A stretch of DNA of 58,928 bases from Gemmatales bacterium (GCA_025055835.1 JANWWR010000107.1:1-58928), one strand, 5' to 3'; shown: positions 16,155 through 23,240, counted from the stretch's first letter. Numbers and translations are program-made. The notes: generated by a model not told the origin, from the sequence alone.

Positions 16155-19100
16155 TCACCGCACCTCCATCAGCAGCGACCGACTCCGCCCCTGCCGATCC
16201 GCGTTGTAATACTCATACACCCGCGCTCCCGGCACCGTGACCTTGACGGGCATCGTCGCCTGCAATTGATACCGCAGGGTCAATTCGCGCCCCGGAGGCA
16301 GGCTCCGCAGATAGACCACGACGCTTCTCGGATTGGCCTGATACTTCTCGATCCGACGGTCACGCACCATCCCTTCCCACTCTTCGGAGAGGATGCCGAA
16401 GCCGGCGGGGATTGGCAGATCGAGAATGACCATCGGAGCTTCCACTTCCATGTTGTTCCGAATCCGAGCCGTGACTTCCACCGTATCGCCGACCGCCAGG
16501 TTGGTCTTGTCGTAATCCAGCGTGATCGTCAGCGGTTCCTGGGGCGGCGGCTGATCGGAATCGGGAACGTGATGTCGGAAGAGGATCTGGAAGCTGGAAG
16601 CGGAGGCAGAAGTTTCCCCGATCCGCAGCGAATTGCGACCCGCTGCCAGCCGGTCGGACAGGTCGATCACCTTCATGACGTCATCTTGGTCGGCCGGAAT
16701 GACCAGTTCCTGCCGGTGGTCGCCGAGGACGATCTCGATGCGCCGCTCCTGACCACCGCCGAGCGGCTTGCCAGTCCCGGCCAGCAGGGCCTTGAGGGCC
16801 AGCACCGTGCCCTGCGTGGTGCCGAAGGTGCCGTTCTGACTCCGCTGCCGCGTCAACCATGCCAGTCCAGCCCGGATGTCAGCCGGATAGCGATTTTTCT
16901 CGAGAAGTGCGAGCAGGGCAAGGGCCGTCGCCTCCACCGAAGCACCCTCGCCGTAGGCATAAAACAACGTGCCTTGGCCCGCGTCGAGCGTCCACCAGAC
17001 GGTCTTGTTCTCCGCGTCGGTTTTCTTCAAAGCTTGCAGGCGTTCGAGGTACGGAACCAATTCTGCGTCCGGGGTCTGGCAGGCGATCAAGGCGTTGCAG
17101 GTAAGGGCCAGCACATAGGCGTTGTCAAACTCCCTCGGCGGACGGGCCAGCAGGTAGCGGCGTGTCGAGGCTGTCTCGGCCGAGTCGTCACGGTTGCCGG
17201 AACCGAAAACGGCCCAGGCGACGTAAGCCGTGGTCAGGTAGGTTTCCCAACCGACATCGCGTCCGCCGCCTAAGTCTCCGGCGGCCAATCTGCGGCCCTC
17301 CGAGGACCAGGAGCCGTCGGGATCCCGCTTACGGAGCAGCCAGGCCCGGGTGCGGGTGATCAGCCTCGGGTCCACGTCATGGACCAAAGCCATGTCCTGA
17401 AACTCCATCAGCCCATAGGCGGTGAGGAGCACGTTGGCCGGTGGACGGCCGAACCAGTCGAAGCCGCCGCCCGGAACCTCGAAGCCGAGCAGCCGCTGAT
17501 AGCCGAGGTGGATGTATTGGCGGGCCTTGGCCTCAACCTCCGGTGCCGCCTGGTTGGACTTCCGCAGATAACTCAACGCCAGCACGTTCGGATAGGTGGT
17601 GGACGAGGTCTGCTCGAAACAACCGTAGGGCTGGCGGAAAATGCCTTCCAAGCCCTCAATCAACTGGCTGAACGCCGACGGGTAGATTTTGACCAGCAGT
17701 TTGCCGCTGCCTTCGATGGCCTGCTGCGGCAGCTCGAAATCGGCGGACACAGGCTGCTGCAAATCGCCGTTGACGACCTGCTCGACGGGCACGCCGTCCG
17801 GCACGACTTCGATGCCGCGTTTGACGGCGTCGGCGACGAAGCGGCTCTTGGCCGTGACCTGGAGCGTGTGCTTGCCGACCTGCTTCACCTTGATGCGGTA
17901 CGAGCGGGACAGCACCTGATTCGCTTCCAGGCGCAAACTTTGTTCGGCTTCGCCTTCGACCAGCTCGAACCACGGCTGAACTTCCAGGCGGATTTCGACC
18001 TGCTGTTCCTGATTGAGGTAGTTGCTGACAACGACCGGAATGCTGACCTCATCGCCCCGGGTTAGCGTCACGGGCAAATTGAGGTCCACGAAGAAGGGCT
18101 GGAACACCCGCACGCCGCTCTGCAAGCCCCCCAGCCGACCGTCGCCTGAAACCGCTCCCGCCGTTAATCGCCAAGTGGTGATCGAGTCCGCCAAGTCCAC
18201 TTCGATCTGAGCGAAGCCGTTGTCATCCGTGATGATCTCCGGCCGCCACAGCAGCGTTTCCGGGAAATACTCCCGCACCCGGACGGATTCCGTGGACCCT
18301 GCCTCACCCGGCTGGTTGGCCTGCCCTTCCTGGCCCACTTGGGGAGGAAGCATGGCTTCAACCTTGACATTGCCAGCCTCCGATCTTGACACCGGCAGCG
18401 CACTTTTGTCGGCTCCAAACAATCCCAGGGTCGCTACTAGCAGAAACACTCCGCCGCACCCGGCGACCCCTAAGAGGACTGCGTTGATCGCCACGACGAT
18501 CCACATTGGCCGGACGAACAGCCACAAGGCCAGGTAAAGAATCAGGCCCAGCATCACGTAGTACGCCGCCCAGAGCCGTAGCAACGTGTCCTCACTGCGT
18601 CTCCGCTCTTCGTCGACTTGCTCCTGCTTGCTTGGAAACGTGGTCAAGCGCAGCGAATACACGGAATTGAAATCCGGACTGGCAAAAGGACGTGCGGCCC
18701 GATCGGTTCCTGTCTGTGCCATCGAAGCGCGAGCATTGTCCGTCTGGGCGAGTTGAGAGAACAAGGCAAGCTCGAAGTCGTCCCAATCCCTTCCACGGCG
18801 GCGGCCGGGATGATCGGGATACCAATCGTAAATGGCGTAGATGGGCTTGAGCCGTTCCTGCTCCAGCGTGAAAAAGGTCTTTTCCATGCCGGGAGCCTGG
18901 CTCATCACGCTGAAGACGGCTTCGTCCACGATGGCGAGGCTGATCGCTCCCGGAGTCGGTTTGCCCTCCCCGTCAGTGATCTCGAAGCCGATCGTGGCCC
19001 GCTGGCCAGGGCGGAACTCCTCCTGGTTCATGATCGTGGTGATCTTCAGTTCTTGAGCCTGCTTGACGAAGATGGACCGGCTCTTGCGGACGGCCAGACC

Positions 19101-20912
19101 GGCGGTGCCGAAGCGATAGGCCACGATTTCCACGTTGCCGAACAGATCGGCGGGCAGATCCACTTCCAATTCGCCCTTGCCGTCCCGCACCTCGACGGTG
19201 GTCGTCAGCACGGTCTGGCCGTCGCGGATCAGGTCCACGAACACGGGTTCGACCCCGGCTCCCAGGGCGGTCAGACGCAGCGTCTCGCCGCCGGTGTACA
19301 CCGCTTTGTCAGTGCGAAGCACGAAATCGCGGTCGGGAACTTGCCCGCACATCAAGACCTGAGTACGGCTCGCAGTGAGGCCGTTGCGGTCCACGGCGGT
19401 GACGGTCAAAGACACGCTCTCGCCTTGCGGAGTGACCTCGAAGACGGCCATGCCTAGCTCGTTGGTCACAAGCTCGTTGGGCTGATCGCTGATCTTGAGC
19501 CGGGTGCCTGCCGCTGGTCGGCCCTGAACGTAGGTGGCATAGACGTAGATGCGGTTCGGCACGCCATGCACCAGCACACCGTTTTCGGGCAACAACATCA
19601 GCCGCAGAGGACGGGCGGTGACGATCCGCGTGATTCGCCGTTCCTGGGACTGCCCCGCGGTATCGGTGACTCGGGCAAGGATTTCAATCCGGGCATCGCC
19701 GGACTCGGTTTCCGTGCCGATGAGCTGGTTCGGCAAGGTAAACTCAAAGGCCGCCTCGCCCTGGCGATTCATCCGCACGTCGAACTTCCTGAGCGTCGTC
19801 GGCCGGATTTCCTGGGTCACGACCTCGATTTCGGCCGAGCCGCTGACCGGCTTCCCGAAGAAGTAGTTGGCGAAGACCGTGCCGCGCACCTTCGCCCCGG
19901 GCTGGTAGTACGGCTCATCGACGTCGATCTCGACCTTGAACTTGGGAAGCACATAACGGGCCACCTCGACGGTCGCCTCGCTGACCGTGTCGCCGACTTC
20001 GCAAGTGATTCGATAGTTGCCCAGGAGGATTTCGTTGGCCAGTTCGCAGTCGGCGGAGACGATGCCGAAACGGCTGGTGACGTCGCTGCGTTTGAAGATG
20101 ATGTTGCCCTTGGGGTCGGTGACGCGGAAGACGGCTTGCCGACCGGCCTCCGGTCGCAGATCGGGCCGACGCAGGGCCAAGGCCCGCAGGTGGATCGTCT
20201 GGCCCGGCTGATACACCGGCTTGTCGGTGCTGAGCATCAGCTTCCACTGACGCCGCAGCACAACCGGCTCGGCCAGTTGCTCGGGCTGGCTCGGCGTCTG
20301 AGCGACGATCTGAAGTTGGTATTCGCCGTCGTTCCAGTCCGGCCAACGGAACCGAGGTCGGCCGGTGCCGTTCTCGTCGGTGACGAACTCCGCCAGTTTC
20401 ACCGCATCGGATCGGCCCTGCCCGTCGGCCAGGTAAAGCACCACGGGAACGCCGCTGACAGCCGCCCCGTTGGAACGGTTCACCAGCCGCACCCGCAATG
20501 ACGCTTCCGAGCCGGGAACCGCCTGCCGTTGACCGAAAACTTGCAGGTCCCAGGGCGTCGGCGTGAGATTGGCGTAGTACAAGCCCAGAATCATGAGCAC
20601 AATGGCAGCGGCTGCCGCCACCCCGCCGGAACCGAAGGCGTAATAAACGAACCAGCGCAGGCGGGTGGTGCGTCGGCGTTCCACCTTGGCCAACGTCCTT
20701 CGCACCAGACCCTCGGATGCCTCCAGGCCCGGCAGCCGTTGCAGGGCTTCGAGCCGCTGGGCTGCCCGACCCAGGGCCGCTTTCAATTCCGGGCGTGCCT
20801 CGCAGTCCCGCTCAAACTGCTCCGCCTCCGTCGGCGACATCAGGTCGTGCAGGTAGGCGTCGATGCGTTCGTGATCGGCGTCGGTCAAGCTGGCAGGAGG
20901 CTGTTCTGACAT
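16155..20912 (-). CDS. Membrane-anchored alpha-2-macroglobulin (thioester protein) with an N-terminal anti-sigma-like domain and an internal TM hairpin
   Basis: STDKPVYQPGQ (MG2), YVLPKFKV, VDEAV, REYFPETLLW, DSITTW, FQPFFV-L-LP, thioester PYGCFEQ (nt about 17610-17630), GYQRLL, TTQGTVLALKAL, VYEYY. aa 1-85 anti-sigma-like, TM about 87-113, two further hydrophobic helices about 777-833. Confidence 0.9.
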   Translation of the reverse strand: MSEQPPASLTDADHERIDAYLHDLMSPTEAEQFERDCEARPELKAALGRAAQRLEALQRLPGLEASEGLVRRTLAKVERRRTTRLRWFVYYAFGSGGVAAAAAIVLMILGLYYANLTPTPWDLQVFGQRQAVPGSEASLRVRLVNRSNGAAVSGVPVVLYLADGQGRSDAVKLAEFVTDENGTGRPRFRWPDWNDGEYQLQIVAQTPSQPEQLAEPVVLRRQWKLMLSTDKPVYQPGQTIHLRALALRRPDLRPEAGRQAVFRVTDPKGNIIFKRSDVTSRFGIVSADCELANEILLGNYRITCEVGDTVSEATVEVARYVLPKFKVEIDVDEPYYQPGAKVRGTVFANYFFGKPVSGSAEIEVVTQEIRPTTLRKFDVRMNRQGEAAFEFTLPNQLIGTETESGDARIEILARVTDTAGQSQERRITRIVTARPLRLMLLPENGVLVHGVPNRIYVYATYVQGRPAAGTRLKISDQPNELVTNELGMAVFEVTPQGESVSLTVTAVDRNGLTASRTQVLMCGQVPDRDFVLRTDKAVYTGGETLRLTALGAGVEPVFVDLIRDGQTVLTTTVEVRDGKGELEVDLPADLFGNVEIVAYRFGTAGLAVRKSRSIFVKQAQELKITTIMNQEEFRPGQRATIGFEITDGEGKPTPGAISLAIVDEAVFSVMSQAPGMEKTFFTLEQERLKPIYAIYDWYPDHPGRRRGRDWDDFELALFSQLAQTDNARASMAQTGTDRAARPFASPDFNSVYSLRLTTFPSKQEQVDEERRRSEDTLLRLWAAYYVMLGLILYLALWLFVRPMWIVVAINAVLLGVAGCGGVFLLVATLGLFGADKSALPVSRSEAGNVKVEAMLPPQVGQEGQANQPGEAGSTESVRVREYFPETLLWRPEIITDDNGFAQIEVDLADSITTWRLTAGAVSGDGRLGGLQSGVRVFQPFFVDLNLPVTLTRGDEVSIPVVVSNYLNQEQQVEIRLEVQPWFELVEGEAEQSLRLEANQVLSRSYRIKVKQVGKHTLQVTAKSRFVADAVKRGIEVVPDGVPVEQVVNGDLQQPVSADFELPQQAIEGSGKLLVKIYPSAFSQLIEGLEGIFRQPYGCFEQTSSTTYPNVLALSYLRKSNQAAPEVEAKARQYIHLGYQRLLGFEVPGGGFDWFGRPPANVLLTAYGLMEFQDMALVHDVDPRLITRTRAWLLRKRDPDGSWSSEGRRLAAGDLGGGRDVGWETYLTTAYVAWAVFGSGNRDDSAETASTRRYLLARPPREFDNAYVLALTCNALIACQTPDAELVPYLERLQALKKTDAENKTVWWTLDAGQGTLFYAYGEGASVEATALALLALLEKNRYPADIRAGLAWLTRQRSQNGTFGTTQGTVLALKALLAGTGKPLGGGQERRIEIVLGDHRQELVIPADQDDVMKVIDLSDRLAAGRNSLRIGETSASASSFQILFRHHVPDSDQPPPQEPLTITLDYDKTNLAVGDTVEVTARIRNNMEVEAPMVILDLPIPAGFGILSEEWEGMVRDRRIEKYQANPRSVVVYLRSLPPGRELTLRYQLQATMPVKVTVPGARVYEYYNADRQGRSRSLLMEVR

Positions 20913-20991
20913 GGCAAATCCTCCGTCCCGTCAAAGGTCACGGCAGAAGGGGTCATTCCTCGGAAAACCGCTTCGTCGGTTATGGACCGAA

Positions 20992-21555
20992 TCAGGTCGC
21001 CATTCGCGGAGCAAGAATGCGACGGATCGCCGCCAGGCCGTGGTGCATGGTGGATCGAACGGTTGCTTCTTCCTTCCCCAGCACCTCGGCGATTTCGCCG
21101 TACGACAGGCCGTCCCAGATGCGAAGGACCAGCACAGTCCGCTGCTGGAGCGGCAACCGCGCGACGGCTTGAGCGATGATCTGGGCATCTTCCGCGTCCA
21201 TCGCCGCGTGGTCCGGTTCCTTGACGGCGTGTTCGCCCAGGTGTTCGGCCTGTTCCTCGCTGAGGGAAATCGTGTCCAGGCGGTGGCGGCGGAAGTACTC
21301 CCGGACCTTGTTCAGTGCGATGGCGTACAGCCACGGCTTGAACGGCTTGGGATACCGATAGGTGGACCGCTTGGCCCACACAGCCAGGAAGGCTTCCTGG
21401 AACAGTTCCTCGGCCAAGGCACGATTGCCGACCAGGCGGTAAAGAAAGGTCAGCAACGGCGTGGCGTGGCGACGCAGCAGCGCTTCCATGCTTTCGTGAT
21501 TCCCCTGGGCCGTCCGCATCATCAGCTTCTCGTCCGGGTCATCGGGTGCGGTCAT
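20992..21555 (-). CDS. ECF (sigma70 group 4) RNA polymerase sigma factor
   Basis: Sigma2 (AEELFQEAFLAVW, FKPWLYAIALN) and sigma4 (LPLQQRTVLVLRIWDGLSYGEIAEVLG----TVRS). No C-terminal extension; start at ATG 21555. Confidence 0.93.
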   Translation of the reverse strand: MTAPDDPDEKLMMRTAQGNHESMEALLRRHATPLLTFLYRLVGNRALAEELFQEAFLAVWAKRSTYRYPKPFKPWLYAIALNKVREYFRRHRLDTISLSEEQAEHLGEHAVKEPDHAAMDAEDAQIIAQAVARLPLQQRTVLVLRIWDGLSYGEIAEVLGKEEATVRSTMHHGLAAIRRILAPRMAT

Positions 21556-21665
21556 GGCGAAGACCTGACTTCGGCCTCTGAGGACTGCTATGCGCCGCGG
21601 GGCCAATCCGTTGAACGGAATGTTAAAAATCTGGGAAACGGTAGTCAGGACGCTGGTCGCCCAAA

Positions 21666-23240
21666 CTACCCGCTTGTCGCCAGGATAACGAACAGCATCA
21701 GCGCGCCGTTATTGACGGCGTGAGCAACGATACCCGGGACGACGGTTTCTCGCCATTCCCGAGCGATGGTGAAGGCGAAGGCCAAGGCCATCAGCGCCGG
21801 GACGGCTACCCACCCTTGCGGATGGATGACGGCGAAGATGAAACTGACGATGAAAGCGCTGGCCAGGAACCCGAAGACCCGTCCGAGCTTCCGAGTCGCC
21901 TCCCGAACGTGCCGGTAGAAGACGCCGCGGAACATGATCTCTTCGACGATCGGAGCGCACACGGCGGCCACGAACAGCACCTGGAATCGTGCCCACCAGC
22001 TGCCAGTCCCGAGGTACTCCAGGATGGGATGCGTCGGGGAGTTGAGCGTCGGATCGAAGGGATTCGTCTGCTGCGGACCAAACAGCAGGGTGTGAATCAT
22101 CTCCCGGAACAGGATCAGCATGAAGGTCATGAGGATGCCGACCACGAGCATCGGCAGCCCCATGACATAGCAACCGATGCCGACAAACGGCTCCGCCCAC
22201 GGCCGTCGTCCCCAGGTCAGGCCGATGTCTTTGCGGACCACGCTCCAGGGCACGCCGCGGATCACCGGCCAAGCCAGGGCGACCAGACTTGCCAACACCG
22301 ACAGTCCCAGGACGAACAGTTCCGACTCGGGGGGAATGGGCAGGAACGAGACGCCCAGCTGGAGGCCGACGAACAACACCATGTAGAGGGCGAAGGTTTC
22401 CGCATACACGCCGTGATGTAACGAGCCGGTCCGCAGGCCGCCTCGGACCCAGCCCATGAGAGCAAGGATGAGGAATATGAACAACCCAATCGCCCCGGCC
22501 AGGATCAGAACACCGCCGCCAAGCACCCCGACGATGGCGGTCACGAAGGTTCGTTGTGCTCCAGCCAGCAGTTGCTTGCGGACCTCGGGCGTCGGGCCGC
22601 CCTCCGGATTCAAGGCCAACTCCGCGAACCAGCCCAAGGCCTGGCGGAGTTCGTCCCGTTGCTCCTGAGATACCTCCGGAGCCTTCCATTGACCGGCCTC
22701 GTATTGCCGGTACAGGGTTCGCAGAATGCTGAGCAGTCGCGATTCCTGGGGGGTGAATTGATAACCATGTTCGGCGGCTTCGGCTTCCAGATGCTCGAGT
22801 TGATCCAAGGCGGCAGCCGGACCCTGCATCTCTCCGGCAAAGATCGCCAGACGCAGCCGCTGGATCACCGAGCCTCGGCCGATCTCCTCAAGCTGCTTGT
22901 ACAGGGAGTCCTTCATTTCCTTGGACTTGAAGAACTGGCCGGCTCCCAGGGCGTAGCGGACCTGGAATTGCATGAGGACGCCGCTGATGCGGTCGATCTG
23001 CTCATCGTCTCCGGTCTCGCGTTTCAGGAGCAGAGGAGCGACGACCATCAGCGCCGTGACGGCGAGGATGATCGGCCAGGCCAGCCAAGCCATGCCCCGG
23101 CGAACCGGTTCGAGCGTCGGAATCGGCGGCGGAGCGACGACGGCGTCGATTATCGGCGGTGGCTCGCTGGGAAGAGGTGGTTGTGGTTCTTCGGGTGGCA
23201 GGGGAATAGCTTCCCAGGTGTCAGTCATAAGGTGTCCCAT
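21666..23240 (-). CDS. CPBP (Abi/CAAX type II) intramembrane glutamic protease with a large N-terminal soluble domain
   Basis: EEIMFRG, FAVIH and HAVNN motifs intact; multiple TMs; Pro-rich N-terminus; about 150 aa helical loop after TM1. Confidence 0.88.
   Translation of the reverse strand: MGHLMTDTWEAIPLPPEEPQPPLPSEPPPIIDAVVAPPPIPTLEPVRRGMAWLAWPIILAVTALMVVAPLLLKRETGDDEQIDRISGVLMQFQVRYALGAGQFFKSKEMKDSLYKQLEEIGRGSVIQRLRLAIFAGEMQGPAAALDQLEHLEAEAAEHGYQFTPQESRLLSILRTLYRQYEAGQWKAPEVSQEQRDELRQALGWFAELALNPEGGPTPEVRKQLLAGAQRTFVTAIVGVLGGGVLILAGAIGLFIFLILALMGWVRGGLRTGSLHHGVYAETFALYMVLFVGLQLGVSFLPIPPESELFVLGLSVLASLVALAWPVIRGVPWSVVRKDIGLTWGRRPWAEPFVGIGCYVMGLPMLVVGILMTFMLILFREMIHTLLFGPQQTNPFDPTLNSPTHPILEYLGTGSWWARFQVLFVAAVCAPIVEEIMFRGVFYRHVREATRKLGRVFGFLASAFIVSFIFAVIHPQGWVAVPALMALAFAFTIAREWRETVVPGIVAHAVNNGALMLFVILATSG

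Follow-up and report, generated by a model that had tools for sequence, protein, structure and literature searches.

Can a protease trap double as a signal receptor? The question is raised by positions 16,155 to 21,555 of a 58,928-nucleotide stretch of DNA from a Gemmatales bacterium (GCA_025055835.1, JANWWR010000107.1:1-58928; the whole stretch is called the window below). Here a gene for an extracytoplasmic function (ECF) sigma factor is followed by a gene for a very large protein that combines a predicted anti-sigma domain with an alpha-2-macroglobulin (A2M). An earlier note, made from the sequence, had reported the position of the sigma gene, a 79-nt gap and a 1585-aa gene, and all of these coordinates were reproduced. 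The architecture of the large protein, the homology of its cytoplasmic tail to sigma-binding domains, the genetic coupling of the two genes and the conserved ECF-type promoter ahead of them are each demonstrated or strongly supported by our analysis. As to function, we favour, at a probability of about one half, a self-contained two-gene module for signalling and defence, in which damage to the trap would free the sigma factor and so re-express the module's own genes. The features of the locus, from the promoter to the C-terminus of the large protein, are as follows.

21589-21615, minus strand: ECF-type promoter TTCAAC-N14-GCGCATA (-35 AAC, -10 CGC), 33 nt upstream of the sigma ATG
20992-21555, minus strand: ECF sigma gene, 187 aa, ATG start, recognised by Pfam and NCBIfam
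20913-20991, minus strand: intergenic spacer of 79 nt, with ribosome-binding site GGAGGA at 20919-20924
16155-20912, minus strand: large A2M open reading frame (ORF), 1585 aa, one uninterrupted frame
20658-20912, minus strand: predicted cytoplasmic anti-sigma domain, aa 1-85, a zinc-free derivative of the ZAS domain
20571-20651, minus strand: transmembrane helix 1 (TM1), aa 88-114, with the Ala run VAAAAAIV; hydropathy peak 2.11, helical in the AlphaFold2 (AF2) model
18813-20558, minus strand: periplasmic MG1-MG6 ring and bait-region domain, aa 119-700 (Pfam MG2, MG3, MG4, A2M_BRD)
18639-18812, minus strand: linker before the hairpin, aa 701-758, candidate bait 1, partly disordered
18408-18587, minus strand: predicted membrane hairpin TM2+TM3, aa 776-835, with an Arg-Pro turn; hydropathy 2.33 over 55 aa
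18285-18407, minus strand: disordered linker after the hairpin, aa 836-876, candidate bait 2; predicted local distance difference test (pLDDT) 28-43
17985-18284, minus strand: MG7 (the Pfam A2M domain), aa 877-976 (PF00207, 5.2e-26)
16785-17678, minus strand: thioester domain, aa 1079-1376 (PF07678 TED_complement, 4.6e-44)
16188-16439, minus strand: C-terminal MG8/receptor-binding-type domain, aa 1492-1575 (PF07677 A2M_recep, 2e-10; weak bMG10)

The two genes are conserved as a pair. In the protein collection, relatives of the large protein number more than 2600; its 120 best homologues are about 1600 aa long, align mostly over 98-100% of the query and are about 50% identical to it. Genomic context was taken from a locus scan with one genome per species, which returned 80 loci, and pairing was counted in those loci (n=22) where an anti-sigma domain was detectable, a hairpin was present and the DNA reached far enough upstream. 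An orthologous sigma gene (E 1e-37 to 1e-58) was found directly upstream and on the same strand in all 22 of these, which come from Pirellulaceae, Planctomycetaceae, Gemmataceae, Phycisphaerae and Tepidisphaeraceae. The earlier note had set ECF-A2M adjacency in relatives beforehand as a test on which its proposal could fall; because the sigma gene is directly upstream in 22/22 loci, this test fails to refute it. Clustering of the flanking ORFs over 24 loci left the sigma and A2M genes as the only conserved ones. Relatives in Armatimonadota and other phyla showed a plain N-terminal anchor and no membrane insertion, and a same-strand sigma gene was upstream in 0 of the 4 such forms tallied. In a quick tree, the forms without the anti-sigma domain grouped in a single clade with good support, separate from the fusion forms of planctomycetes. 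A phylum-wide tally from the genome search cannot separate forms with the anti-sigma domain from forms without it, as its alignments break at the bait region.

The two genes also appear to be read from a common promoter. The sigma protein matched Pfam Sigma70_r2 (1.2e-15) and Sigma70_r4_2 (9.7e-16) and scored 99 bits against the NCBIfam sigma70-ECF model (cut-off 42.9). Its likely start is the ATG at 21555, because the conserved promoter has its -10 element downstream of the alternative, longer start, a TTG at 21606. GGAGGA was read from the sequence 6 nt ahead of the ATG of the large ORF at 20912. No terminator-like site was seen in the 79-nt spacer between the genes, and the five such sites in the scanned region as a whole are no excess over the 4.5 expected from shuffles. 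The AAC...CG form of the promoter is typical of ECF promoters. Of 26 orthologous upstream regions, 12 contained its strict form, where shuffled sequences would give 0.03, and the spacer was near-constant among these 12 sites, at 15 nt in 11 and 14 nt in one. Looser forms were seen in most of the remaining regions, and in most loci the motif ended 23-46 nt ahead of the start codon. These data strongly support one ECF-type promoter, shared by the sigma gene and the large gene, that looks autoregulated.

In the window's own genome (3.86 Mb, 95% complete), the sole exact copy of the promoter was the operon's own. Two sites with one mismatch were seen, one within a UvrA-like gene on the opposite strand and one within an unannotated ORF, and both look like chance. 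A wider regulon was looked for in this genome with the promoter pattern and none was found, the exact pattern standing only at the operon. Across the genomes of six relatives the exact pattern was found once in four and twice in two, about equal to a reversed-pattern control. Read most simply, these sequences describe a two-gene unit that regulates itself and has few further targets, if any.

One relative yielded a separate observation. Its genome (G155, that of locus L003) has a second exact promoter at 3694-3720 of L092, on the minus strand, which has the extended -35 element GGATTG (TTCAACGGATTG) in common with the operon's promoter. This copy lies about 130 nt upstream of a gene for a VWA-domain lipoprotein (MRRISVTLLVVFLGILVSGC...); it may be genuine, and the lipoprotein gene a possible extra member of the regulon. 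No equivalent of this site was found in the window's genome.

How closely does the N-terminus of the large protein resemble a sigma-binding domain? The earlier note had read aa 1-85 as a zinc-free class I anti-sigma domain, and the motifs it named each sit where it had placed them: ERIDAYLHDLMSPTEAEQFERD at aa 15-36, RRRTTRLR at aa 79-86 and VAAAAAIV at aa 98-105, with no HxxxCxxC. A profile built from 41 family N-termini (N-terminal 118 aa) matched RsiW (5wuq_C) at E=9e-4, with profile positions 7-78 falling onto RsiW 6-77 and so spanning nearly all of that domain, and matched RslA (3hug_B) at E=6.5e-3. Pfam zf-HC2 was matched individually by 22 of the 41 N-termini. More than 100 of the 120 best homologues begin with the canonical ZAS pattern including HxxxCxxC, for example VDDYLHDVL...VERHCEACRIC, followed by a transmembrane (TM) helix at about aa 85-110, and three homologues carry the JGI automatic name 'anti-sigma factor RsiW'. 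The RsiW and RslA profile matches, together with the zf-HC2 matches of the homologues, bear out the class assignment, and membership of the N-terminus in the class I (ZAS-derived) anti-sigma family is supported at the level of sequence.

Structure prediction was consistent with this assignment. The AF2 model of aa 1-118 (pLDDT 86) has helices at 11-21, 27-39 and 41-59 and a long helix at 67-114 that runs into TM1, so that helix 4 of the anti-sigma domain is continuous with TM1. A Foldseek search with the anti-sigma model placed the cytoplasmic domains of MucA, RslA (TMt, the TM-score normalised to the target, 0.64-0.69), RsiW and ChrR near the top, and none of the matches to this model alone was significant (best E 1.3). 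The Ala-rich stretch that had been pointed out in TM1 proved to be a family feature: A100 and A101 are present in at least 90% of homologues, and the rest of TM1 is variable. When the N-terminal profile was run against 1.84 billion representative proteins, 231 clusters were returned at E<=1e-10. About 50 of the best 150 of these clusters are full-length (about 1500-1760 aa), and the six short matches looked at were all fragments running into MG1/MG2 of the A2M fusion. On this evidence the A2M fusion seems to be the sole setting of this anti-sigma subtype.

The remainder of the protein belongs to the A2M and thioester-containing protein (TEP) family. Pfam MG2, MG3, MG4, A2M_BRD, A2M, TED_complement and A2M_recep were all above cut-off on the large protein, and bacterial-type MG domains were marginal (bMG10 27.8 bits, bMG5 below cut-off). 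An intact thioester GCFEQ had been placed at about aa 1097-1101; it occupies exactly these residues (nt 17610-17624) and is found in all listed homologues. With this invariant motif and every A2M domain present, the protein is predicted to be competent as a trap. Its description as a complete A2M was right in that all the Pfam A2M domains are there, but it is not an ordinary A2M, having a membrane hairpin inside the bait region. The best sequence matches in the PDB were CD109 (1.1e-63) and A2M (1.9e-62), then A2ML1, mosquito TEP1 and C3/C4; no ECAM or Sa-A2M chain was among the best 60 PDB sequence matches listed. In the AF2 model of aa 1-1000 (pLDDT 77.5) the beta-sandwich ring is mostly at 80-95, and Foldseek with this model returned C3, C4, CD109 and A2ML1 at E ~1e-35, with ECAM at rank 42. 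Sequence and model thus suggest a body that resembles metazoan CD109/A2M/C3 more than the A2M of E. coli.

The bait region carries a 55-aa hydrophobic block (aa 780-835) with two predicted TM helices, between the bait-region domain and MG7. Its position agrees with that of a bait region inserted in MG6. In the AF2 model the hairpin is formed by helices 759-799 and 803-831, with disordered segments beside it at aa 724-749 (pLDDT below 50) and about aa 830-887. The protein had first been read as crossing the membrane once; this reading gave way, since hydropathy and AF2 point to three crossings and a membrane-tethered bait. The most economical topology has the tail inside, TM1 leading out, MG1-6 in the periplasm, the hairpin passing in and out again, and the remainder periplasmic. 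The hydrophobic block is present in nearly all of the 120 best homologues, with a looser pattern in P0053, P0060 and P0063. Conservation within the protein is lowest in the linkers and the hairpin (column identity 0.21-0.38): values were 0.38 for the linker before the hairpin and 0.21, the lowest in the protein, for the linker after it, compared with 0.6-0.77 for the MG domains. Such variability would be the pattern expected of bait sequences. Right after TM1 stands a highly conserved juxtamembrane motif, HLYYxNLxPSPYDL (aa 115-127, nt about 20532-20570), which leads directly into the first MG1 strand and in which L116 and P120 are found in at least 90% of homologues. This segment leaves almost no linker for a site-1 cut.

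The hairpin takes other forms among the relatives. Its second helix is a type IV pilin/DUF1559-like N-terminal segment in at least one fifth of homologues (20/107 by a narrow pattern), for example GVTLGELLLVVLILFILASLLLPAVQCARESSRR. The pattern ...VE..VV..I..L.ALLLPAVQSAREAARR...NDLKQ is seen in homologues P0032, P0050, P0065, P0078, P0098 and P0120, and a degenerate equivalent lies at 18408-18500 of the window. The pilin-like segment explains stray 'PulG' and PF07596 annotations. Processing of the hairpin by prepilin peptidase was considered and is not supported for this protein: TM3 of the window protein lacks G(-1) and E(+5), and the pilin-like subset mostly lacks G(-1). We do not propose it here because the needed glycine is usually missing and the window helix is not pilin-like. 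Forms with multiple TM helices in the bait belong to more distant relatives (Verrucomicrobiota, Sedimentisphaerales and others); in L048, L049, L050, L066, L068 and L078 the bait region carries at least six TM helices, the last of them pilin-like. An ECF sigma gene stands directly upstream in L048 and L066, and the N-terminus of L066 looks like an anti-sigma helix.

What might such a protein do? We infer that the tail holds the sigma factor at rest and that attack by a protease releases it. The tail, by its homology, would sequester the sigma factor until a protease in the periplasm cut either of the disordered, hypervariable linkers beside the hairpin. The trap would then fire, the thioester would bind the protease, and the spent, rearranged molecule would become a substrate for regulated proteolysis. 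The expected order is trimming of the ectodomain, site-2 cleavage in the Ala-rich TM1 and degradation of the tail in the cytoplasm. The freed sigma factor would re-transcribe the sigma and trap genes, coupling consumption of the trap to its replacement. No strong promoter copy was seen in this genome besides that of the operon, and the sigma factor seems to act chiefly on the genes of its own operon; what follows is therefore likely to be renewal of the spent trap, probably by re-synthesis, and not a broad response. In RseA and RsiW, site-2 cleavage exposes Ala-rich ends that act as a cryptic degron, and the Ala run of TM1 recalls these. An RseP-like split M50 site-2 protease domain was found in a 704-aa frame on contig C135 of the window's genome, and this domain and the two near-invariant Ala residues of TM1 are in favour of a proteolytic release. 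The hairpin may relay the conformational change to TM1. The more specific idea that an A2M-type thioester protein acts here as a transmembrane receptor, the firing of the trap being passed through a three-helix membrane assembly to the tail and the sigma factor, is put forward more tentatively, at somewhat short of even chances.

Several observations weigh against this proposal. In the AF2 model MG1 starts about 6 residues after TM1, and the N-terminal (MG1-6) ring of A2M-family proteins normally stays folded after activation or bait cleavage. Judging by the model, about 650 folded periplasmic residues would remain on TM1 after a bait cut. A simple route of bait cleavage followed by RseP is not obvious because MG1 abuts TM1, and the folded ring and this contact would call for further trimming or for a signal passed sideways by way of the hairpin. 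The anti-sigma domain of the window copy is without zinc ligands, and the profile search that had been suggested for the N-terminus succeeded in part: the family profile finds RsiW and RslA, whereas the window sequence alone gave weak NCBIfam anti-sigma matches (E=1e-3 and 3.4e-3) far below cut-off. The regulon was inferred from a strict pattern in a draft genome that is 95% complete. Synteny also has exceptions. L012 (Singulisphaera sp. Ch08) has a ZAS-A2M fusion beside a divergent, non-orthologous ECF-type sigma factor of 372 aa, L034 has an A2M gene split by a frameshift and no sigma gene nearby, and L007 has a hairpin A2M with neither an anti-sigma domain nor a sigma gene. These three loci form one sub-clade that breaks the pairing rule. 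Because the hairpin is present in L007 without an anti-sigma domain, signalling is not its sole function, and it probably serves in the first place to hold both halves of the protein, with the covalently bound protease, on the membrane.

The alternative that survives best, although we consider it unlikely, is homeostatic dosage coupling. The tail would titrate the sigma factor one-to-one and so set the level of A2M at the membrane, with the A2M as effector and not as sensor, and turnover or dilution of the protein would raise free sigma. Such coupling would need only the two conserved genes and the one exact promoter copy, their own, that were found. It is also favoured by the close approach of MG1 to TM1, where a dedicated cleavage site would hardly fit, and by the failure to find a conserved site-1 partner protease (PrsW- or DegS-type) among the flanking genes of 24 loci or in the 80 loci scanned. 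However, membrane anti-sigma factors with large ectodomains are generally responsive to signals (RseA, RsiW, RsiV, FecR), and retention of so costly a fusion across the phylum suggests more than titration. Dosage coupling also shades into the self-replacing trap that we favour, since using up the trap amounts to turnover of the protein.

It is improbable, but worth weighing, that proteases as such are not what the ectodomain senses. It might instead respond to nucleophile-rich polymers or surfaces, through their reaction with the thioester, to damage of the envelope, or to being cut by one of the cell's own quality-control proteases; the A2M fold would then have been reused as a general conformational switch. 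The structural matches given above lend this some weight, in that the closest solved relatives include CD109, C3 and TEP1, and complement-type TEPs (C3, C4, insect TEP1) tag surfaces and do not inhibit proteases. The varied insertions in the bait, from pilin-like helices to blocks of at least six TM helices, suggest that this region is not just a soluble bait for proteases. Yet the linkers that flank the hairpin are disordered and hypervariable, as protease baits should be, and both the A2M_BRD and the receptor-binding-type domains are retained.

More doubtful still is the idea that the tail became vestigial in the window's lineage after loss of the zinc ligands, the sigma factor having passed under other control, for example that of a CPBP protease encoded upstream. 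The ligands are indeed replaced in the window and its closest relatives (P0003-P0006), where FERDCEARPEL aligns with VERHCEACRIC and HxxxCxxC has become DxxxRxxL. Because D-CEA-R-PE-L occupies the ligand positions, the window protein is, on the evidence of the alignment, a zinc-free descendant of the ZAS family and not a ZAS protein in the strict sense. However, many working class I anti-sigma domains are zinc-free, RseA among them, and the window copy has kept its helices, the other conserved anti-sigma positions (D18, H22, A46, R53, P61, E64) and a confident AF2 model.

The CPBP (Rce1-like) protease gene encodes 524 aa (21666-23240, minus strand) and lies about 110 nt upstream of the sigma ATG. 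It is found upstream of the sigma gene in exactly the zinc-free lineage, where it also adjoins the relatives at 77% and 56% identity. Its adjacency may merely reflect close kinship, because the entire neighbourhood, including the ATP synthase genes, is syntenic in those relatives. No CPBP gene was found beside a relative at 52% identity (P0007), and the 80 genome loci held no CPBP homologue even at E<=10. The CPBP protein was therefore rejected as a dedicated, conserved site-1 protease; it is outside the conserved module and may have a lineage-specific role. An artefact, in which a small anti-sigma gene was mis-called as fused to a separate A2M gene, has next to no chance of being true, being refuted by the single 1585-aa frame, by the 120 homologues that align mostly over their whole length, and by independent gene calls on JGI and Logan contigs that yield the same product.

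The locus was compared with known sigma/anti-sigma systems. As in SigW-RsiW of Bacillus subtilis and SigL-RslA of M. tuberculosis, the sigma gene precedes the anti-sigma gene behind one ECF-type promoter. The likeness to RsiW and RslA extends to an N-terminal helical anti-sigma domain followed by a single TM helix, Ala-rich as in RsiW and RseA. Unlike these proteins, the fusion has a thioester A2M/TEP of about 1470 aa in place of a small extracytoplasmic domain, re-enters the membrane twice and, in the window copy, has lost its zinc ligands. It also differs from RsiW-type systems in having no conserved site-1 partner that we could find. The logic proposed here is that of RsiV-SigV, which responds to lysozyme, and RsgI-SigI, where a hostile or nutrient macromolecule is recognised by the ectodomain of the anti-sigma factor itself: the ectodomain binds the agent directly, and the response induces a countermeasure. 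The folds are unrelated to that of the fusion, in which the receptor would also be the covalent countermeasure and whose operon appears to induce mainly itself.

As an A2M, the fusion shares with metazoan TEPs (CD109, A2M, A2ML1, TEP1, C3/C4) the order MG1-6/bait/MG7/TED/MG8 and a GCxEQ thioester. CD109 is anchored by glycosylphosphatidylinositol, and the fusion is membrane-tethered too, but by TM helices. Further differences from metazoan TEPs are its bacterial origin, a bait region that sits within the membrane and the cytoplasmic anti-sigma domain that it carries. The published scheme for bacterial A2Ms recognises a type I, with a thioester, a lipoprotein anchor and an operon with pbpC, and a type II, with no thioester and a mag operon (PMC5764988). 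The fusion has the thioester of type I (E. coli ECAM/YfhM, Salmonella Sa-A2M) without the lipobox or the pbpC operon; unlike type II (P. aeruginosa MagD) it has a thioester, and no mag operon was found at the locus. Judged by its sequence features, it fits neither type. The system can be described as an ECF/anti-sigma pair with an unprecedented sensor or, equally, as a third bacterial A2M architecture.

No paper that brings together an anti-sigma factor, an alpha-2-macroglobulin and an ECF sigma factor was found in the library searched; a brief mention in the supplement of the ECF reclassification or in two planctomycete ECF surveys is possible. Reviews and structural papers on A2M yielded no mention of anti-sigma factors, and a preprint on the CAGE complex proved to be unrelated. 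ECF sigma/anti-sigma pairs are a main route of bacterial transmembrane signalling, and A2M and complement are a main arm of animal innate immunity. The conserved fusion would bring the recognised bacterial A2M architectures from two to three. If the proposal is true, a thioester 'mousetrap' can serve as the ectodomain of a receptor, and one polypeptide forms an innate-immunity-like circuit that senses attack, covalently captures the attacker and re-arms itself. Bacterial sensing of foreign proteases could also be tested directly in such a system. With its bait embedded in the membrane, the protein offers an unstudied coupling of a large conformational switch to the membrane, and the metazoan-like body bears on the old question of movement of A2M/TEP genes between bacteria and animals. 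With one promoter, two genes and an apparently self-limited regulon, the module is attractive as an engineered protease biosensor.

Two metagenome-assembled genomes labelled Alcaligenaceae (L016 and L022) carry the planctomycete-type module. L022 groups with Gemmataceae in the tree and L016 is unplaced; mis-binning is more likely than transfer in both.

No pbpC-like gene was found within about 5 kb of the locus, in keeping with what the earlier note had said of the neighbourhood. This region holds, downstream on the opposite strand and converging on the large gene, a gene for a xylose-isomerase-like TIM barrel and the ATP synthase operon, and, upstream on the same strand, the CPBP gene and a gene for a TPR protein.

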